From: Escherichia coli
Lineage (GTDB): Bacteria > Pseudomonadota > Gammaproteobacteria > Enterobacterales > Enterobacteriaceae
Strand: one strand, 5' to 3'
DNA: 5,318 nucleotides
Assembly (NCBI RefSeq): GCF_044324875.1
Contig: NZ_CP172190.1
Below are positions 174 through 5,318 of the stretch, in pieces. Each line of letters begins with the position of its first letter. Position 1 is the stretch's first letter. Position numbers and translations under genes: made by a program. A model generated the notes under the pieces. That model saw only the letters and a list, made by a program, of their open reading frames with translations, was not told the DNA's origin and ran no database searches.

Positions 174-746
174 TCACGTCAAGATAAAATAAATACCTGT
201 ACCTAATATAAAAATGGAGCTACATATACTTATGTACCTTGAGAATGACGGAGTTAATTTATCCCTTATCGTCAAGCTAATAGCTATGTAAATAATATCT
301 GTCAGGAATGATATAAATATAAACAAAACACCCAATATAAAGAAATTTAATGCGATATTTGTATTATCATCTATAAATGCTGGTATTAATGCCGCAAAGA
401 ATAAATACGCCTTTGGGTTTAATAATGGTATAAGTAAAGGTTTTTGTACTTTGCTTTTTTTGTTTTTTTTATTAATTAAACCCATTACCCCTATGTATAT
501 TAAATAGCTTCCACCTAAGATCTTTATAATGTAAAAGTGTTGTTCTATGCTGGATGTTGAAGATAACGTGAAAAGAGATATTACCATGACGATTGCTTCG
601 CCAGATCTTATGTATACACTTGTTTTTATTGATGATTTAAGTCCTTGTGAAAAGGCGTTGTTTATAACCAATGCAACACCAGGTCCTATTGATATAGTTT
701 GAGATAAAGTTACGATAGCAAATGAAAATAATGTTGAATATTCCAT
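174..746 (-). CDS. LysE/RhtB-family amino-acid exporter (small six-helix inner-membrane translocator)
   Basis: 190-aa ORF, strongly hydrophobic with several predicted transmembrane segments. It carries an N-terminal SIGPG motif and a central PLLIPLLNPKAYLFFAALIPAFID segment matching the NPK...LFF...P(A/Q)FI signature of the LysE/RhtB family. Size is typical (about 190-210 aa). The gene is very AT-rich compared with the rest of the window. No strong Shine-Dalgarno is visible upstream of the ATG at 746. Confidence 0.75.
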   Translation of the reverse strand: MEYSTLFSFAIVTLSQTISIGPGVALVINNAFSQGLKSSIKTSVYIRSGEAIVMVISLFTLSSTSSIEQHFYIIKILGGSYLIYIGVMGLINKKNKKSKVQKPLLIPLLNPKAYLFFAALIPAFIDDNTNIALNFFILGVLFIFISFLTDIIYIAISLTIRDKLTPSFSRYISICSSIFILGTGIYFILT

Positions 747-1154: not shown

Positions 1155-1232
1155 GCGAGTGGCGGCTCCGCTCGCCGCAGCCCCAGCGACCGAGCGTTAG
1201 CGAGCAAGTGGGCGAGGAAGCGGAAGTGAACC
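1155..1232. other. Putative primosome assembly site (PriA-type ssi/pas-like hairpins) flanking the origin
   Basis: GC-rich island in an otherwise AT-rich origin region. CCGCTCGCCGCAGCCCCAGCGACCGAGCGTTAGCGAGCAAGTGGGCGAGGAAGCGGAAGTGAACC closely parallels, from memory, the pMB1/pBR322 sequence just downstream of the ColE1-type origin (CCGCTCGCCGCAGCCGAACGACCGAGCGCAGCGAGTCAGTGAGCGAGGAAGCGGAAGAGCG), including the GAAGCGG core. A 6-bp stem hairpin CGCTCG...CGAGCG lies at 1169-1196. Confidence 0.35.
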
Positions 1233-1301
1233 GTAGCCAGGTTGAGCACATACGCACGGTTTTTCGACAGGTGATATGCGCCGAACCCGCATGAATACTG
1301 G

Positions 1302-1310
1302 ATTTCCACA
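1302..1310 (+). promoter_or_regulatory. DnaA-box-like 9-mer (ATTTCCACA)
   Basis: 8 of 9 match to the TTWTNCACA DnaA box consensus, in the same orientation as the two other boxes, upstream of the AT-rich repeats. Confidence 0.4.
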
Positions 1311-1397
1311 GGGTTGAGCGGGGTTTTTGCTAAAGTCCGCGAAGTGGATTTTTGTAACATCTTGTTTTTTCTTGTTTTTCCTTTTGCGCACCCCAAG

Positions 1398-1406
1398 TTT
1401 TCCACA
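1398..1406 (+). promoter_or_regulatory. DnaA box (TTTTCCACA)
   Basis: Full match to the relaxed consensus TTWTNCACA, located about 20 bp upstream of the AT-rich 13-mer repeats, the expected place for DnaA-assisted unwinding. Confidence 0.5.
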
Positions 1407-1426
1407 GGCTCGCTGTTAAGTTTTTA

Positions 1427-1465
1427 GATCTTGTTTTTAAGATCTTGTTTTTAATACTTGTTTTA
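1427..1465. repeat. AT-rich DNA unwinding element: three tandem 13-mers (GATCTTGTTTTTA x2, ATACTTGTTTTA) with Dam GATC sites
   Basis: Direct repeats at 1427-1439, 1441-1453 and 1454-1465, resembling the oriC 13-mer consensus GATCTnTTnTTTT. Further copies of CTTGTTTTT lie at 1361-1369 and 1371-1379. The block sits between a DnaA box and the iterons. Confidence 0.6.
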
Positions 1466-1508
1466 GGGTCGAATTTTCTTATGGAATTCAAGAGTTTAGA
1501 AGACTATA

Positions 1509-1591
1509 GGTAATATAATTTAAGGTAAAGGCAATATGATTTAAGGTGGATAGGCAATATGATTTAAGGTAAAGGCAATATGATTTAAGGT
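1509..1591. repeat. Iterons: four direct repeats with ~21-23 bp periodicity (core GGCAATATGATTTAAGGT)
   Basis: Exact 18-mer GGCAATATGATTTAAGGT at 1530-1547, 1553-1570 and 1574-1591, plus a degenerate copy GGTAATATAATTTAAGGT at 1509-1526. The spacing of about two helical turns and the position directly upstream of a Rep_3 gene are the classic iteron arrangement. Confidence 0.85.
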
Positions 1592-1592
1592 A

Positions 1593-1601
1593 ATATCCAC
1601 A
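1593..1601 (+). promoter_or_regulatory. DnaA-box-like 9-mer (ATATCCACA) between iterons and the rep promoter
   Basis: 8 of 9 match to TTATCCACA, immediately after the last iteron. Confidence 0.4.
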
Positions 1602-1617
1602 GGAAAAGGGATATTAA

Positions 1618-1658
1618 AATTAAATCATATTGCCTTTACCTAAAGGAATGTTTATATT
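1618..1658 (+). promoter_or_regulatory. rep promoter (-35 TTGCCT at 1630-1635, 17-bp spacer, -10 TATATT at 1653-1658) overlapped by an inverted iteron (autoregulatory operator)
   Basis: 1622-1640 is the exact reverse complement of the 19-bp iteron core GGTAAAGGCAATATGATTT; extended to about 24 bp there is one mismatch. Inverted-iteron operators over the rep promoter are characteristic of Rep_3 initiators (dimer binding, autorepression). The -35 element lies inside this inverted repeat. A GAGGG Shine-Dalgarno sits at 1678-1682, 7 nt before the ATG at 1690. Confidence 0.6.
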
Positions 1659-1689
1659 TTACTCATTGCCTTAGGTTGAGGGATTTACA

Positions 1690-2391
1690 ATGTCGGATCT
1701 GATTGCCTACAAATCCAATGCACTGGTTGAGGCCAGCTATAAATTGACTCTTCAGGAACAGCGATTCTTGTTACTTTGCATTGGTCGATTGAAGTCGGGT
1801 TCTGATGCAGAATCCACTGAATTGCAAAAGACCATGACTGTTACCGCCGAAGAGTATTTCGACTCATTCCCTGATATGGGGCGGAAAAATGCCGAGGTTC
1901 AGCTACAGGAAGCAATTGATCGTTTGTGGGACAGGTCGATCATCCTTAAGGACGATGAGAAGCGCGAGGAGTTCCGCTGGATCCAGTATCGGGCACAGTA
2001 CGCTAAAGGTGAGGGCAAAGCCCAAATCACTTTTTCAGATGCGGTCATGCCTTATCTGACACAGTTGAAGGGGCAATTTACTAGAGTTGTAATTAAGAAT
2101 ATCTCCAATTTATCAAGAAGTTACAGCATAAGAATATACGAACTTCTCCAGCAATTCCGCAGCACAGGGGAACGTATTATCGCCCTCGATGATTTTCGCT
2201 CAATGCTTGATATAGAGCATAAATATCAAACATATAAGTCTCTGAACCAGCAATTATTAAGACCTTGCGTTGACGAACTGAATCAAAAAAGCGACTTGGC
2301 TGTAACGCTTGAGACGATCAAGAAGGGGCGCACGGTTGTAGCCCTGCATTTTCGCTTCAAGGAAGACAAACAGATCAAGATGACGATCTAA
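1690..2391 (+). CDS. repA: Replication initiator protein, Rep_3 family (iteron-binding RepA/RepE/pi-type)
   Basis: 233-aa ORF with good Shine-Dalgarno and promoter, directly downstream of the iterons. The N-terminus (YKSNALVEASYKLTLQEQRFLLLCIGRL) and the segment YSIRIYELLQQF...LDDFRSMLDIEHKY...YKSLNQQLLRPCVDELNQKSDL...KKGRTVVALHFRF parallel, from memory, pSC101 RepA, F RepE and pPS10 RepA. Length is within the family range (about 230-320 aa). Confidence 0.9.
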   Translation: MSDLIAYKSNALVEASYKLTLQEQRFLLLCIGRLKSGSDAESTELQKTMTVTAEEYFDSFPDMGRKNAEVQLQEAIDRLWDRSIILKDDEKREEFRWIQYRAQYAKGEGKAQITFSDAVMPYLTQLKGQFTRVVIKNISNLSRSYSIRIYELLQQFRSTGERIIALDDFRSMLDIEHKYQTYKSLNQQLLRPCVDELNQKSDLAVTLETIKKGRTVVALHFRFKEDKQIKMTI

Positions 2392-2402
2392 AATCGATTT
2401 TA
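2389..2402. repeat. 14-bp perfect palindrome TAAAATCGATTTTA overlapping the rep stop codon (copy 1)
   Basis: Self-complementary sequence read directly. The 13-mer AAAATCGATTTTA recurs exactly 90 bp downstream. Candidate protein-binding site; function unknown. Confidence 0.5.
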
Positions 2403-2410
2403 AGGCATCT

Positions 2411-2437
2411 AAAACGCCATCTGGTTCGTTTTTTTGG
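2411..2437 (+). terminator. Possible weak intrinsic terminator downstream of rep
   Basis: AAAACGCCATCTGGTTCGTTTTTTT: imperfect A/U-rich stem (AACGCCA / TGG..CGTT) followed by a 7-T tract, 20 bp after the rep stop. Confidence 0.35.
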
Positions 2438-2479
2438 TGTCAGGTATGCGATGGTACTACCAAGCAAATAAATTGCGTC

Positions 2480-2492
2480 AAAATCGATTTTA
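2480..2492. repeat. Second copy of the palindromic 13-mer AAAATCGATTTTA
   Basis: Exact repeat of the palindrome at the rep stop codon. Confidence 0.5.
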
Positions 2493-2774
2493 GAGAGCGG
2501 TATGGCAAACCATGTCGAACATTACTTGTGTTACTTGACGTGAGAGATGCGTTAATGCCGCCAGCAGCAGTCCCCCATCGAAGTGACTCATGTGTGACTA
2601 AAGAGCAAGCCTGAGCAACGTAGGAATCTCCAACCTTCAGGACGGGATGGATATCAAGCACCAGGGCACACTTGAAAACAAAACCTCGCCTCTGGCAAAG
2701 CGCGTCCTTTCACGATGACGTAGAGGTATTTGAATATCTGTAGGAGTTCATCACGCTATTTTAACGCTTAAAAA

Positions 2775-2840
2775 GCGCGTTTCTGATTGTGTAACTAAAC
2801 ACAGGTAGTAATTAGTAGGTGTGGGGGGGCAGAAACGCGC
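2775..2840. repeat. Inverted-repeat pair A: GCGCGTTTCTG (2775-2785) and CAGAAACGCGC (2830-2840), 44-bp spacer
   Basis: Perfect 11-bp inverted repeat read directly. It shares the 10-bp core CGCGTTTCTG with pair B at 3310-3373. The spacer contains a G7 run. Candidate operator pair or hairpin. Confidence 0.5.
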
Positions 2841-3180
2841 AATTAATATTTATCGTGAATTTGATTTTATGTCTAGTATCGAGAAACAGAATATAAAAAG
2901 ATTATCTTTGGAAATATAGAAAAAAAATAAAATAATAAACTAAAAACAATCAAAAAATAATAAATATTACACTACAATATGGCAATAATATATTCATTCA
3001 TATAGTGATATACGCTATGGTTTTCAAAATTTTCCTTGAGCTGAAGAACGGAGTTTTATGGCAAACGAGGTAATCTTGCACAGGAAAAATAGGTTGTATC
3101 TATGTCATGGTTTTGTTATTTTTTTTTGCTCAGTTATTGATGGTCAATATGTAAAATAAATCAGGTACTTCCTTACACTT

Positions 3181-3207
3181 ACCCTCATTCATTGAGGGTT
3201 TTTTTTA
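3181..3207 (+). terminator. Rho-independent terminator (plus strand)
   Basis: ACCCTCA-TTCAT-TGAGGGT: 7-bp GC-containing stem with a 5-nt loop, followed immediately by a run of 8 T. No T tract on the opposite strand, so it is unidirectional. No CDS lies upstream, suggesting it ends a small RNA or a decayed gene transcript. Confidence 0.7.
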
Positions 3208-3218
3208 TCCATATCTAA

Positions 3219-3531
3219 GTTGACATCCTCCATGCCCTGAAGGACGGGGTTTTACAGCACACCGGATAACTATCTCGACATGGATATTGATACACGTTAA
3301 AAATACGTGACGCGTTTCTGGCAGATATCTGAGGTCTATTTCGCCGTGTTAGCCACACTGTCAGAAACGCGTTCAATTTCTCCCGTTGAGCTGATATGCT
3401 CATCACCGCAATCACGGTAGTGTCCGAAGACGAACCGTTAATGCATCTTCCCCCCGATACTGGGCTTTCGGGGGGAATATTTACTCGGTGCGCCGTAAAA
3501 CCCCGTCCTTCAGGGCATGGAGGATGTCAAC
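3219..3531. repeat. 313-bp element bounded by perfect 37-bp terminal inverted repeats (MITE-like element or invertible segment); interior 239 bp
   Basis: 3219-3255 GTTGACATCCTCCATGCCCTGAAGGACGGGGTTTTAC is the exact reverse complement of 3495-3531. The interior contains its own inverted-repeat pair (3310-3373) and a 9-bp G/C stem hairpin (3449-3476). No convincing CDS inside, and no target-site duplication is evident at the boundaries. Confidence 0.6.
3310..3373. repeat. Inverted-repeat pair B: ACGCGTTTCTG (3310-3320) and CAGAAACGCGT (3363-3373), 42-bp spacer
   Basis: Perfect 11-bp inverted repeat (15 of 16 if extended), sharing the CGCGTTTCTG core with pair A. It lies inside the 37-bp-IR element. 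Confidence 0.5.
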
Positions 3532-3610
3532 ACGAATCCCCTATCTTCTTTTCAGTAAGAAACGGTCATTGAAAACTTATATAACACTACTTTTGGTGTG
3601 TATTTTGCGA

Positions 3611-3643
3611 TAAAAATATCCCCTATCCTAATGATAGGGGATA
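3611..3643 (-). terminator. Rho-independent terminator (minus strand)
   Basis: Plus-strand TATCCCCTATC-CTAAT-GATAGGGGATA forms an 11-bp stem (3617-3627 / 3633-3643). On the minus strand the stem is followed by A then UUUUU (plus-strand A-run 3612-3616). It is convergent with the plus-strand terminator at 3181-3207, so the two bracket the IR-bounded element. Confidence 0.55.
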
Positions 3644-3745
3644 CAAACGATGAATTAACAGTTCTTAATTCTCACGTGAAAAGATAGATTTTAACGAAGA
3701 CACAATCAGCAGTCTTATATCGAATGGCTATCGATCCTGAATCCT

Positions 3746-3838
3746 GATGAGTGGGGATGTTTCTGTACTACTAATGAAAAGCTATCCGGCTAGAGACTTT
3801 ACGATACAGAAACACCCCTCTTTCTTTTATCTCATCAG
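3746..3838. repeat. Long imperfect inverted repeat / hairpin (CTGATGAG...TGTTTCTGTA // TACAGAAACA...CTCATCAG)
   Basis: Outer 8-bp arms CTGATGAG / CTCATCAG and inner 10-bp arms TGTTTCTGTA / TACAGAAACA pair, with an asymmetric internal loop. Orientation and function are unknown. Confidence 0.4.
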
Positions 3839-4376
3839 ATGCCATAGCGCAAAACAATTTCGTTTCACAGATGTGACTTACAATCAAACTGTGCAACATA
3901 AATCACAAAACAAGAAGGTTTTGTTATTATTTTGTTGATGAGTTGTTTTTCGTTGGTTGTTTTTTTGAGGCGTACATACGCGCACAAATGTAAAACTAAA
4001 TTCGTGTTTTCGATAATTTTAAGGCCACAATCATTATGGCATTTTTTATCCTGATCGCCGTCAAAATCTGTCCTTCATGGCAGGATTTACGGCGATCCGG
4101 ATAACACCAAAGATACCTACATGCTCATTCCCCTGTGGTTTCCAGGATATCTTTCCTGTTTTCTGTGCTGTTCATCGCGCCGCCATACCCCGTAACGACT
4201 GCGCTCAGTACCCCTGAAATTTCGCTCGCCGGAAACACGCGGGTGTTGTTTTAACGTGTCCCGGTAGCGGTGTCCAGGCAGGTATGCTTCCGCCAGCGGA
4301 GTTGTTGATCTTGTGTTCTGTTTTTGGCTAGTATTTGTCCGAAAACCTGTCGCTCCGGCGACCAACTAATCTCCCG

Positions 4377-4471
4377 GTGGTCTGAGAGGGAGGCTTACGC
4401 GACCACACTGTCATCTCAGGATGACCAGCCAATGTTCCGGCAGTCTGAGAGGAGCGCCTTCGGGTGACTGC
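4377..4471. other. Two tandem structurally homologous hairpins (candidate structured RNA or protein-binding motif pair)
   Basis: Hairpin 1: stem GTGGTC (4377-4382) / GACCAC (4401-4406). Hairpin 2: stem GCAGTC (4440-4445) / GACTGC (4466-4471). The stem sequences differ but each keeps perfect pairing (compensatory changes). Both loops begin TGAGAGG and contain an inner mini-hairpin (GC-TTAC-GC; GCC-TTCG-GGT, a UUCG tetraloop). Both are preceded by CCGG. A further tetraloop hairpin GTCATC-TCAG-GATGAC lies between them at 4410-4425. Confidence 0.35.
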
Positions 4472-4934
4472 AATATCCCATGAGCCTGGAAGAGGATGCC
4501 TATATGGCGGCAACATCCGTTTAGCCTCTGGAAACGGATGTCACCAGTAGCTGGTGACTGAGGTACGTTATTTTTACCTTCGGATTACCCGTACGGTTTT
4601 GTATGTCATGAAACTTACGAGTTTTCCTCTCGCAGAGTGGCGAAATGCCTTATATATCTGCGTCTTAAAGATTTTCTGTCAGGCTGCATGAGCTTCTTGT
4701 GACTGTGCGCACGGCATAAGGCCATTTGAAATTTGGCTGCTTGCGTGTGTACGTGGAGTCTGAAGCTGTGCGGCGTCACTTGCGTGCGACCGGAGGGAAC
4801 ACCAAGTGACGCCACAACAATCTGCCCTGAAAGCAGCATCACGTAAGGCCTGCCAGAAAATCGTCGCTCGTGACCAGCGTTCTGATGACCGTTTTGTCTT
4901 TCTGACAGCGTCTTTCAGTAACGTGTCCATGCCT

Positions 4935-4981
4935 TTCCGGCGCGTCCGTTTTCACGGACGGCCACGCCGGAATGTCTTTTT
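4935..4981 (+). terminator. Rho-independent terminator (plus strand), compound GC-rich hairpin plus U tract
   Basis: Outer stem CCGGCG (4937-4942) / CGCCGG (4965-4970) and inner stem CGTCCGT (4943-4949) / ACGGACG (4954-4960) with loop TTTC, followed by TGTCTTTTT (4973-4980). It lies inside the 66-aa ORF 4806-5006, which argues that ORF is not a real CDS. Confidence 0.55.
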
Positions 4982-5037
4982 AAACTTCATAATACATGAG
5001 AGGTAAGTGTATTAACTTGTTGAAAAAAGGAATAAAT

Positions 5038-5127
5038 ATGAAAAATCGTTCTGAAGTCGGAAGGCGTCATCGTAAGATGACGGGGAGTAAAAAATCGCCC
5101 TGGTGCACAGGTAGCGAACTCCTGTAA
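5038..5127 (+). CDS. Possible small basic ORF (29 aa, MKNRSEVGRRHRKMTGSKKSPWCTGSELL); leader-peptide-like, speculative
   Basis: ATG at 5038 is preceded by AAGGA (5027-5031) with 6-nt spacing. The ORF is very short with no recognisable family, and lies about 55 bp downstream of the terminator at 4935-4981. Confidence 0.2.
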   Translation: MKNRSEVGRRHRKMTGSKKSPWCTGSELL

Positions 5128-5263
5128 AAACTCAACATGTGCAAGCTCTGCTACATCGACATCAAACGAGCCAGGAAGGCGAGCAACCGCGTTACAGAGC
5201 CGTCCGTGATGACGAAAAACTAACAATATCAACGATCTGGTCTGTTTATCGGAAGGGCATCTC

Positions 5264-5318
5264 ATGCAGTTGAACTTTCAGAACGGATGGTTTTCTGCAT
5301 CTTTTTTAACAGGGGGAT
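5264..5318 (+). CDS. Possible 5' end of a downstream gene running off the window (MQLNFQNGWFSASFLTGG...)
   Basis: ATG at 5264 is preceded by GGAAGGG (5251-5257) with 6-nt spacing. Only 18 codons are visible. The same sequence could alternatively fold as a weak hairpin followed by a T tract (5295-5307), so the call is tentative. Confidence 0.25.
   Translation, partial: MQLNFQNGWFSASFLTGG

Follow-up and report, generated by a model that had tools for sequence, protein, structure and literature searches.

A gene-free stretch of a small Escherichia coli plasmid as a probable recombinational mosaic with an orphaned ICE integrase leader

Layout and coding content downstream of rep

The window (the whole stretch of DNA analysed, 5318 nt) is a complete ∼5.3 kb E. 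coli plasmid, in which some 2.9 kb downstream of rep are free of genes. Three near-identical or related plasmids have no RefSeq/PGAP gene between rep and the record end, a six-frame NCBIfam HMM scan of the region matched no family and its individual ORFs gave no matches when searched singly. The longest listed ORF in 2392-5318 has 92 aa (4987-5265, minus strand) and the longest lying wholly within 2392-5263 has 83 aa, compared with 106 ± 24 aa in 500 Markov shuffles, which puts the scarcity of ORFs at the level of random sequence. In Klebsiella and Serratia, the copies of a putative 66 aa ORF (4806-5006) are interrupted by a 34 nt indel, and homologous DNA in hundreds of records carries no annotated CDS, apart from remnants of tnpB and mobQ and one non-conserved 56 aa call. 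The initial annotation had seen no credible CDS downstream of rep, and this is upheld by RefSeq, the six-frame scan and the shuffle comparison. It had also offered a heavily decayed gene block, which applies to two short stretches (18 codons from the tail of tnpB and ∼36 codons of mobQ) and not to the remainder: translated searches for pseudogenes (six-frame HMM and tblastn) recovered only the TnpB C-terminus at 2537-2590 (+) and the MobQ fragments at 4120-4217 (-), together < 6 % of the region.

Alignment to homologous replicons gave the boundaries of several blocks of different origin. Window positions 1167-4186 share 98.8 % identity with the MobQ plasmid L002, 4347-5318 correspond to positions 7001-7972 of L019, a chromosomal integrative and conjugative element (ICE) locus (99.3 % identity), and 1-113 are a fragment of another plasmid's repA (100 % identity). 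As homology to the minimal relative pMG828-2 extends through 2486, the structure at 2387-2494 (fold -34.2 kcal/mol, z = -5.6) is part of the plasmid backbone, and it is probably the rep terminator. Beyond it, 2487-4170 stands where pMG828-2 has about 207 bp; this is a lineage-specific accessory segment, confined to a handful of related Rep_3 plasmids, with homologs of most of it in 6-7 plasmids. The sequence at 4120-4217 is a leftover of the plasmid's own mobQ relaxase gene, its two fused pieces corresponding to aa 436-449 and aa 698-719 of the pLH10-b-1-G protein; the remainder of mobQ and its upstream region are absent, and MOB-suite typed the plasmid as non-mobilizable. We therefore consider it probable that the region is a non-coding recombinational mosaic of accessory segment, mobQ remains and ICE integrase leader. 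The single functional cluster first envisaged gives way to a patchwork that combines one IS200/IS605 end with miniature IS ends, debris of mobQ and a leader derived from an ICE. The gene-free stretch is genuine and its content mostly ordinary, the orphaned structured RNA leader being the intriguing twist. Coordinates are collected in Table 1.

Table 1. Features of the region downstream of rep, in window coordinates
Feature	Position	Strand	Details
rep-downstream structure	2387-2494	+	Inverted repeat 2387-2407/2474-2494 around hairpin and T-run at ~2411-2437
IS605-family (TnpB-type) end	2536-2657	+	5'-truncated, last 122 nt; DNA and tblastn matches
Would-be omega RNA guide flank	2658-2677	+	Directly 3' of right end; putative
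Terminator-like hairpin and T-run	2674-2701	-	Scan match 2701-2683
Hairpin family, copy 1	2776-2840		CGCGTTTCTG...CAGAAACGCG; inverted repeats, z = -3.1
AT-rich spacer	2860-3010		About 26-30 % GC; divergent promoter-like hexamers; low-complexity A-run 2916-2964
Conserved unit confined to plasmids	3092-3209	+	Ends in strong terminator 3181-3199 and T8
Inverted-repeat left arm	3219-3273	-	55 nt; ~50 nt fusion of IS609-like ends
Hairpin family, copy 2	3309-3373		GTTTCTG...CAGAAAC; within inverted-repeat element; z = -4.5
Inverted-repeat right arm	3477-3531	+	Second fused IS609-like end, opposite orientation; 91 % complementary
Strong intrinsic terminator	3608-3644	-	12 bp stem and U-run; z = -4.2
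Hairpin family, copy 3	3754-3818		z = -3.3
MobQ relaxase remnants, two, fused	4120-4217	-	tblastn 100 % and 93 % identity; blastn to L002
Sigma-70-like promoter	4305-4334	+	TTGATC, 18 nt, TAGTAT; 12-14 nt ahead of conserved block start
STAXI array	4344-4568	+	5' capping hairpin 4349-4362 (UCCG loop) and four pseudoknot-type hairpin units
Two conserved hairpins between STAXI and EFASI	4720-4816	+	4720-4738 and 4769-4816; z = -3.0
Conserved hairpin and U-run	4934-4980	+	z = -3.8
EFASI RNA motif	5046-5168	+	Rfam RF02957, 71.7 bits vs gathering score 51.2; fold z = -3.9
Rest of ICE leader	5169-5318	+	ICE homology; to Shine-Dalgarno AGGGGGA (5311-5317)

Terminators, hairpins and insertion-sequence debris

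A terminator scan of the window gave 11 sites, where 5.0 ± 2.4 would be expected. Three intrinsic terminators had been proposed initially, at 3207 (+), 3611 (-) and 4981 (+); the scan includes two of them (3181-3199 with T8 and 3644-3616), whilst the third, a hairpin at 4934-4971 followed by UGUCUUUUU, is supported by its fold (-24.2 kcal/mol, z = -3.8). The long hairpins and repeated palindromic motifs noted at the same time are likewise borne out, by fold z-scores of -3.0 to -5.6 across the region and by the motif GTTTCTG-N41-44-CAGAAAC, which occurs three times where none is expected. The third copy shows a co-varying stem and a conserved loop relative to the colicin plasmid pLS45-5 (L011), and an additional G/C hairpin lies at 3450-3475. 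The unit at 3092-3209 was found at 82 places in 36 E. coli genomes, all of them plasmid-borne and none annotated; aligned with L011 and L004, its poly-T tract differs in length among copies, so that no reading frame is conserved. Both the hairpin family and the terminator-ended units probably do nothing more than terminate or insulate transcription.

The 122 nt IS605 end comprises the C-terminal codons of tnpB (2537-2590; tblastn E = 0.002), the guide (omega/re) RNA scaffold region and a right end, ...GGATGGATATCAA, at 2657. It has DNA matches of 71-79 % in 16 records from seven other genera, several under annotated tnpB/insQ/transposase genes, that cover the last 45-78 nt of tnpB and then 40-75 nt past its stop; in a four-way comparison homology breaks off immediately past ...TCAA. 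This right-end geometry agrees with published loci, in which about 16 nt of flanking DNA act as the guide (PMC8612924), and 2658-2677 would serve in that capacity if an omega RNA were still produced. Folded alone, the 122 nt show no significant structure (z = +1.9) and the end is probably an inert remnant. The inverted repeat 3219-3273/3477-3531 (z = -14.7, folded as DNA) is built from two arms that together make a 313 nt palindromic element. In the left arm a left-end core is joined to a right-end terminus, ...GGAGGATGTCAA; compared with a complete E. coli IS200/IS605 copy (L025), 37 of 39 left-end and 27 of 30 right-end positions are identical. L010, L011 and L014 also carry this fusion, as solo copies.

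The STAXI-EFASI block and its ICE source

Positions 4305-5318 constitute the promoter and complete ∼970 nt 5' leader of an ICE integrase gene (Pfam Integrase_1), captured without the gene itself. A covariance-model search of the region identified two Rfam families above their gathering scores, EFASI and STAXI (RF01728 at 4409-4568, 89.1 bits vs 40.5), and within the leader three other conserved hairpins accompany the STAXI array and EFASI. It matches a chromosomal ICE of the SPI-7/ICEHin1056 type (99.3 % identity). The order STAXI, EFASI, integrase recurs in four loci of ICEs or plasmids (70-80 % identity), where STAXI and EFASI are 469-553 nt apart (478 nt in the window, as in ICE loci) and the distance between EFASI and the integrase ATG hardly varies (157-161 nt). 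In the window, ICE homology ends at 5318, 8 nt short of the ATG position (the integrase gene begins at L019 7980); the ICE-derived sequence breaks between Shine-Dalgarno and ATG, and the foreign repA fragment is joined there. STAXI and EFASI derive from the ardA-carrying part of the ICE, with ssb and topB in the same element, which makes the early guess at leading-region-type functions a fair one.

The promoter matches 8 of 12 consensus positions, below the threshold of the simple promoter scan itself; nevertheless, L019, L020, L007 and L008 all keep TTGAC as -35 and TAnnnT as -10, 17-18 nt apart, with differing spacer sequences. STAXI units form a direct repeat at about 4378-4407, 4440-4471, 4482-4513 and 4523-4564. 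Across 15 distinct units, 84 of 90 outer-stem cells are Watson-Crick pairs, three are G.U and none is A.C, with compensatory changes; an inner pair is G.U in 13 of the 15, which would be A.C on the opposite strand. Every unit starts with a conserved CTG and is closed by a C(UUCG)G loop; in the capping hairpins the loop is UUCG, GAAA or UCCG. A conserved promoter, co-varying UUCG-capped stems and G.U pairs possible on one strand only favour an RNA on the plus strand, and RT-qPCR on vesicle preparations of E. coli has picked up both STAXI and EFASI (PMC12370729). Between the two motifs covariation is weak among the five sequences compared: stems are mostly invariant, with both G.U and A.C cells, and the 11 bp stem of 4769-4816 is identical in five of five. 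The hairpin at 4934-4971 is kept in L020, L006 and L007, and the U-run after it occurs only in the window and L019; judging from sequence, 4934-4980 is probably a terminator or attenuator in this variant, and termination there may be variant-specific since the U-run is not conserved.

We infer that a structured RNA would be made from the block by rightward transcription starting at about 4341; much of this RNA would, in this variant, stop at about 4980, with read-through carrying EFASI. In the ICE the RNA may act as a cis-regulatory leader controlling integrase and the downstream ardA-containing genes, and may possibly also be processed into small RNAs. The plasmid copy would be an orphan that at most supplies RNAs in trans to a co-resident ICE.

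Alternative explanations and comparison with known systems

Three other accounts of the region can be set against the mosaic with little weight. It is most unlikely that the whole consists of former genes in heavy decay: tnpB and mobQ remnants exist, and the repA fragment lies directly past the region's end, but the remnants cover a minor fraction, the six-frame scan was empty, homologous DNA lacks annotated CDSs bar the exceptions given above and the right third is kept as non-coding sequence in ICEs. An equally slim chance attaches to maintenance sites acting in cis (a partition centromere, incompatibility repeats or Xer/cer), an idea already weakly refuted. cer-type sites are common on small plasmids and the region has many inverted repeats, but a search of it tolerating up to 3 mismatches turned up no cer- or dif-like Xer core (L011, for comparison, does have a genuine cer core) and no partition site was found; 2392-5318 hold no direct-repeat or tandem arrays, the iterons are upstream of rep (1506-1612), and pMG828-2, although widespread, lacks the entire segment. 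Of the cluster of small RNAs and cis-acting sites proposed in the initial annotation, discrete structured non-coding elements are supported, whereas partition, incompatibility and multimer-resolution sites are not. That 2487-4170 encodes small regulatory RNAs or type I toxin-antitoxin pairs is improbable as well; the layout would combine divergent promoters inside the AT-rich spacer with terminator-ended units of ∼195 and ∼275 nt and a 33 aa hydrophobic ORF (3059-3160). Promoter-like sites on both strands at 2957-3006, terminators at 3181-3207 (+), 2701-2674 (-) and 3644-3608 (-), the conservation of 3092-3209 on plasmids, a GGAG read ahead of the ATG at 3059 and the presence of the IS-end arms near hok loci in other plasmids would all fit. 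Against this, the Rfam search returned neither sok nor any other small RNA (a lone Arrc14 match, E = 0.65, is at chance level), tblastn found no Hok-like ORF, the variable poly-T length leaves the 33 aa frame unconserved, promoter-like sites are not enriched (13 vs 12.5 in shuffles) and homologs of most of the segment are limited to those few plasmids.

For the STAXI-EFASI block itself, it is unlikely, though deserving of some weight, that the function resides in folded single-stranded DNA, as a single-strand origin or priming site or as an ICE transfer-origin or leading-region entry signal, which small plasmids would capture for replication or mobilization with the ICE, here replacing a lost mobQ/oriT module. 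Every unit opens with CTG, the primase start trinucleotide. The block takes the place of mobQ in the window and is found on three different small-plasmid backbones, one of them a Rep_1 rolling-circle plasmid whose copy is only 90-94 % identical to that of the ICE in the same cell and so is no fresh recombinant. The ICE is present in at least three of four plasmid-bearing strains vs about 0.6 % of genomes overall, figures that ignore clonal relatedness. Weinberg et al. raised a single-stranded DNA role because of neighbouring ssb, topoisomerase, antirestriction and integrase genes, all of which the source ICE has, along with an 'ICE replication protein'; the same authors argued that TTCG gives DNA no stabilization. 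The conserved upstream sigma-70 promoter, the RNA-type UUCG/GNRA loops and the fixed distance from EFASI to the start codon also speak against it, as do the antisense orientation of the block to rep on the rolling-circle plasmid and the non-mobilizable typing of the window's plasmid. The block is missing from other Rep_1 plasmids in that family and is hence not their essential single-strand origin. An RNA leader carried on the plasmid as an orphan thus remains the preferred reading, but if that orphan were useless, its presence on three backbones and its co-residence with the ICE would be unexpected, which counts against this explanation; these plasmids may depend on the ICE.

Among known systems, the block resembles the single-stranded DNA promoters and priming signals of plasmid leading regions (Frpo/ssi) and the single-strand origins of rolling-circle plasmids and ICEs in being highly structured, strand-specific non-coding DNA beside ssb and antirestriction genes. 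The likeness is one of function and not drawn from sequence comparison: unlike Frpo/ssi, the block has no long stem bearing -35 and -10 boxes, its loops are of RNA type and the promoter conserved upstream of it is an ordinary double-stranded one. The inverted arms are presumably akin to miniature IS200/IS605 derivatives (palindrome-associated transposable elements), sharing a short, non-autonomous form, the subterminal hairpin ends of an IS609-like element, TTAT/TTAC before and a TCAA end; they differ in measuring ∼46-50 nt each, in having a single hybrid hairpin (left-end core plus right-end tail) and in building a 313 nt palindrome from two inverted copies, with mobility putative. With the TnpB guide RNA locus (Karvelis et al., 2021, PMC8612924) the window has in common the tnpB 3' end, a TCAA-ending right end and a guide-positioned flank, but it retains the last 122 nt alone, without tnpB, tnpA or the left end. 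As the family description of EFASI (RF02957; Weinberg et al., 2017) has it, the motif lies several hundred nt (478) 3' of STAXI, whereas the integrase gene normally 157-161 nt downstream is absent. The array itself agrees with the enterobacterial STAXI RNA motif (RF01728; Weinberg et al., 2010, PMC2864571) in its full-length covariance match, its tandem pseudoknot-type UUCG-loop units and the place of the source ICE copy among ssb, topB, ardA and integrase genes. It departs from the usual two to three units in having four plus capping hairpins, from the usual setting in residing on a 5.3 kb plasmid with no DNA-handling genes nearby, and from the earlier view of the motif in being visible here as the 5' part of one ∼970 nt leader that runs from promoter to start codon.

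Gene content and mosaic make-up of the plasmid

The window, a complete small circular E. coli plasmid, shares 99.7 % identity with pMTY9803_Col2 (5,310 bp) from end to end and is also near-identical to pLH50-c-F. RefSeq annotates only rep, a LysE-family gene and a pseudo-fragment (1-114) in the window, and the ORF listing contained nothing longer than 92 aa in 2392-5318. The initial annotation had proposed that 2392-5263 holds no credible coding sequence and carries instead terminators, long hairpins and repeated palindromes. The longest ORF lying wholly within this region was 83 aa, compared with 106 ± 24 aa in shuffled sequence, whilst a six-frame NCBIfam scan of the region returned no families and searches with its individual ORFs matched nothing; hidden or decayed genes were rejected on these two negative results. 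A terminator scan of the window found 11 sites where 5.0 ± 2.4 were expected, the arrangement GTTTCTG-N41-44-CAGAAAC occurred three times where none was expected, and a 55-nt inverted repeat (3219-3273/3477-3531) gave a fold z-score of −14.7, with the remaining hairpins ranging from −3.0 to −5.6. Together, the ORF lengths, negative scans, terminators, hairpins, inverted repeat and motif count confirm what had been observed. Weak Rfam matches to the microRNA families mir-586 and mir-23 at 1564-1644 are artefactual and stem from the inverted iteron repeat that precedes rep. The features of the window are listed in the table.

Features of the window and second STAXI copies in related loci
Feature	Coordinates (window unless a locus is named)	Strand	Details
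LysE-family gene	174-746	-	
Iterons upstream of rep	1506-1612		Outside 2392-5318
Rep_3/RepE-like initiator	1690-2391	+	
Intrinsic terminator (predicted)	2701-2674	-	Scan
Intrinsic terminator (predicted)	3181-3207	+	Scan; GC-rich hairpin then U-run
Intrinsic terminator (predicted)	3644-3608	-	Scan
Intrinsic terminator (predicted)	4934-4980	+	Hairpin 4934-4971 then U-run, fold z = −3.8
GTTTCTG/CAGAAAC stem-core hairpins	2779-2836, 3314-3368, 3759-3813		Stem core often CGCG-extended; loops unrelated
mobQ codons 698-719	4185-4120	-	tblastn remnant
mobQ codons 436-449	4217-4176	-	tblastn remnant
Promoter hexamers (predicted)	TTGATC 4305-4310; TAGTAT 4329-4334	+	Alignment
STAXI (RF01728)	4409-4568	+	89.1 bits vs gathering 40.5; model 1-153 of 153
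EFASI (RF02957)	5046-5168	+	71.7 bits vs gathering 51.2; model 1-133 of 133
Second STAXI copy	L019 9859-10012; L020 9712-9837; L006 8377-8529; L007 8381-8509	Gene strand	

Partition, incompatibility or multimer-resolution sites had also been suggested, and these were not found. Tandem Repeats Finder revealed only a low-complexity A-run (2916-2964) in the region, with no partition centromere or iteron-type incompatibility array, and a search for cer and dif Xer cores (XerC arm, 6-8 nt spacer, XerD arm) gave no matches at ≤ 3 mismatches; as such, both Xer sites and repeat arrays were rejected as the content of the region.

The make-up of the plasmid was resolved by comparison with other replicons. 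Positions 1167-4186 are 98.8 % identical to the 5.6 kb MobQ plasmid pLH10-b-1-G, and the minimal relative is pMG828-2 (4,091 bp), which carries rep, one small gene and mobQ. In the window, a 1.69 kb accessory segment (2487-4170) replaces ∼207 bp of pMG828-2 located between its rep terminator and mobQ 3' end, and mobQ itself survives only as fragments. Positions 4347-5318 are 99.3 % identical to an integrative and conjugative element (ICE) in the chromosome of strain FDN-4 and about 29 other chromosomes. Just past the junction, 1-113 is a 100 % identical fragment of repA from ∼5.1 kb Col-type plasmids, joined directly to the ICE leader (1-113 and 5309-5318); the retained Shine-Dalgarno sequence (5311-5317) now precedes an ATG at 3-5, creating a chimeric 26-codon ORF. 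Plasmid backbone homology resumes at 1167. Additionally, a 59-nt stretch (1167-1225) shows an 85 % match to positions 5487-5544 of the FDN-4 locus, ∼1.5 kb upstream of the STAXI block of the ICE, and, judged from this similarity, it could be a recombination site. Layers of mobile-element debris, with terminator-like hairpins, make up most of the region, and its right third is an orphaned STAXI/EFASI leader; the initial interpretation was partly right.

Hairpins and insertion-sequence remnants of the left part

One of the three GTTTCTG/CAGAAAC hairpins co-varies with a copy in the colicin plasmid pLS45-5 (1232-1288 of that locus), and no known family matched them. The role of the hairpins in the left part is probably termination. 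The core of the family, CAGAAACGCG, recurs in non-coding DNA of other small plasmids, with further sites at about 1940-1955 of the 3.1 kb Rep_1 rolling-circle plasmid (NZ_CP059920.1) and about 6890-6905 of locus L004. A ∼120-nt unit (3092-3209) that ends in a strong + strand terminator was found on plasmids only, at 82 places in 36 genomes, none of them annotated. Its poly-T tract differs in length among copies, and the unit consequently has no conserved reading frame; its sole Rfam match, to Arrc14, was at chance level (E = 0.65). A 33-aa ORF at 3059-3160 was considered as a toxin and rejected, as the frame is not kept among copies. The stretches 2658-3091 and 3532-4119 had no homologs beyond six or seven plasmids of the window lineage.

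The arms of the 55-nt inverted repeat match thousands of places; on chromosomes, the matched sites are the termini of an IS200/IS605 element carrying tnpA and tnpB. Each arm consists of a left-end core (37/39 identity to a complete E. coli IS200/IS605 copy) and a right-end tail (...GGAGGATGTCAA; 27/30 identity), together forming a fused IS609-like end of ∼46-50 nt that folds as a single hairpin bounded by TTAT/TTAC and TCAA. Solo copies were found in differing contexts (L010, 3001-3054; pLS45-5, 1455-1498; L014, 1527-1574), and the fused end also stands alone on hundreds of IncI and IncI2 plasmids and plasmids of IncHI2 size, often beside hok loci, as well as in a prophage region. In common with a miniature IS200/IS605 derivative, it has both ends, a subterminal hairpin and the TTAT/TTAC and TCAA boundaries; on these sequence features it may be a very small non-autonomous derivative of this type, and we treat it as a candidate. 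The solo fused ends near hok loci explain a false lead to hok/sok. Whilst the arms do match upstream of Hok genes, the shared sequence is that of IS200/IS605 ends and not hok. Rfam gave no sok match in the window, although the control locus (L009) did yield sok, and tblastn detected no Hok similarity in the window. A hok/sok remnant was accordingly rejected.

A second insertion-sequence trace lies at 2536-2657, which showed 71-79 % matches in 16 records from seven other genera (Xanthomonas, Burkholderia, Pseudomonas, Methylophaga, Edwardsiella and others), several of them under genes annotated as tnpB, insQ or transposase. In two annotated cases the match took in the final 45-78 nt of tnpB, in the same orientation, and continued for 40-75 nt past the stop codon; in the window, 2537-2590 still translates as a TnpB C-terminus (tblastn E = 0.002), and in a four-way alignment homology stops directly after ...GGAT(G/A)TCAA. 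This geometry matches that of a TnpB guide RNA locus, where the 3' end of tnpB and the right end are combined with a guide supplied by flanking DNA (PMC8612924). Unlike a complete IS200/IS605 element, the window shows homology only from 2536 onwards and has no intact tnpB, tnpA or left end, with tblastn finding no further TnpB or TnpA similarity in the window. As only the terminal 122 nt are present, we treat the element as a truncated remnant. A stable structure of the omega-RNA remnant was rejected, its stand-alone fold not being significant (z = +1.9).

The STAXI-EFASI leader and its source element

The source of the right third is a SPI-7/ICEHin1056-type ICE with topB, ssb, a STY4534-family replication protein, traD and a genomic-island-type T4SS. 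Beyond these come 1.2 kb without genes and then, all on one strand, an integrase gene (Pfam Integrase_1 and Phage_int_SAM_2), ardA and other small genes. Four loci with only 70-80 % identity (two E. coli ICEs and one plasmid each from Klebsiella and Serratia) have a constant order of STAXI, 469-553 nt, EFASI, 157-161 nt and the integrase ATG, which agrees with the published description of STAXI/EFASI. In each locus a further STAXI copy lies 2.4-3.8 kb downstream, on the gene strand, ahead of small genes and without EFASI.

Alignment showed that a −35 TTGAC and a −10 TAnnnT, 17-18 nt apart, are kept just upstream of the block though their spacers differ, and that the conserved block starts 12-14 nt past the −10 with a UCCG- or UUCG-capped hairpin. 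Between STAXI and EFASI are three further conserved hairpins (4720-4738, 4769-4816 and 4934-4971). At the first of these, GGCCATTTGAAATTTGGC, both direct half-repeats change together from ATTTG to ATCTG in the related locus L020, a correlated change in a direct rather than an inverted repeat. A 66-aa ORF (4806-5006) was rejected because a 34-nt indel interrupts it in the Klebsiella and Serratia copies. At this place in the 3.1 kb Rep_1 plasmid (2454-2624), PGAP calls a 56-aa 'hypothetical protein', WP_157903596.1; as this lies in a conserved non-coding block and the ORF is not kept in Klebsiella or Serratia, it is probably a spurious gene call. Homology to the ICE runs as far as 5318, past the Shine-Dalgarno sequence but short of the integrase ATG, so that the plasmid has the promoter and the whole leader without the gene. 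The right third is thus a new, orphaned instance of a known STAXI/EFASI leader.

We next consider in which form the block acts. Across 15 distinct STAXI units from nine loci, 84 of the 90 outer-stem cells were Watson-Crick pairs and 3 were G.U, with no A.C (0/90), and two or three pair types occurred at five of the six outer-stem positions. The inner closing pair was G.U in 13/15 units, where the opposite strand would give an A.C mismatch, and the C(UUCG)G loop was present in all 15. The capping hairpins co-vary, with UUCG, GAAA or UCCG loops, and the stems of the middle hairpins were mostly invariant among the few sequences compared, too few for a covariation check. STAXI and EFASI have also been detected by RT-qPCR by others (PMC12370729). 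Taken together, the STAXI stems and loops, promoter conservation, the constant spacing between EFASI and the start codon and the published RT-qPCR favour a + strand RNA acting as a leader. The alternative, that the block works on ssDNA as an oriT or single-strand-origin signal, is weakened by this RNA evidence, by Rep_1 relatives that do without the block and by the typing of the window plasmid as non-mobilizable. These relatives also led us to reject the block as an essential single-strand origin of the Rep_1 plasmid. Nor is the STAXI block supported as the reason why the 3.1 kb plasmid is typed as 'mobilizable', since the other inverted-repeat-rich stretch of that plasmid also occurs in Rep_1 plasmids without the block that are likewise typed as mobilizable.

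Small plasmids, the ICE and comparison with known systems

The block is found on three small backbones: the window lineage, pGF43-E and the 3.1 kb Rep_1 rolling-circle plasmid. pGF43-E (NZ_CP172132.1; 4.4 kb) has a diverged Rep, a single annotated gene (rep) and the same accessory segment, and its block variant is without EFASI and 96 % identical to the copy in the O157 tellurite/urease (ter/ure) island; the block copy of the Rep_1 plasmid is 90-94 % identical. Block variants appear to have been exchanged between plasmids and different chromosomal islands. Strains GF4, TUM9803 and 64.1 each carry a STAXI-bearing small plasmid together with a chromosomal ICE copy, and in TUM1886 the two presumed parents, MobQ plasmid and ICE, occur together. 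Co-residence was thus seen in at least three of four plasmid-bearing strains, compared with a chromosomal copy in ∼0.6 % of complete genomes, a contrast that ignores clonal relatedness and a count that leaves out the LH50-c and GF43 chromosomes. Common descent of poultry-associated lineages could account for this co-residence, as could a real dependence of the plasmids on the ICE.

We regard as rather unlikely the broader reading that the block is a self-contained cis/trans module of the ICE, repeatedly captured by small plasmids to depend on or exploit an ICE of the SPI-7/ICEHin1056 type. Here, the block would act on ssDNA as a signal for transfer or second-strand synthesis or, alternatively, as a decoy or regulatory RNA manipulating early genes of the ICE. 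Such a role would explain the presence of the block on three unrelated or diverged small backbones and in place of a mobQ/oriT module, as well as the exchange of variants with chromosomal islands and the co-residence with the ICE in at least three of four sequenced hosts; if true, the 3-5 kb plasmids bearing the block would be satellites of an ICE. The hint of dependency given by co-residence is the part worth attention.

Both STAXI (reported in 2010) and EFASI (2017) are motifs conserved in enterobacteria. The plasmid shows both within one ∼970-nt promoter-to-start-codon leader with extra conserved hairpins between them, and the strand bias and promoter add to the case for an RNA role. It also offers a naturally occurring construct, a small multicopy replicon bearing the leader apart from its integrase gene, which makes simple experiments possible. 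As a caution, long gene-free stretches in small plasmids can be layered mobile-element debris.

Compared with the STAXI family, which has two to three tandem units, the window has four hairpin/pseudoknot units (4378-4564). Its neighbours are mobQ debris, a repA fragment and LysE, in contrast to the ssb/topoisomerase/antirestriction/integrase surroundings of the family, which are present in the 99.3 %-identical source ICE; this neighbourhood is a context descriptor outside the covariance model. The EFASI family lies several hundred bp beyond STAXI and ahead of an integrase gene. In the window, EFASI starts 478 nt after STAXI but lacks the downstream integrase gene, which is present in the FDN-4 ICE (L019) and in the related loci L020, L006 and L007, and has been replaced in the plasmid at the 5318/1 junction.
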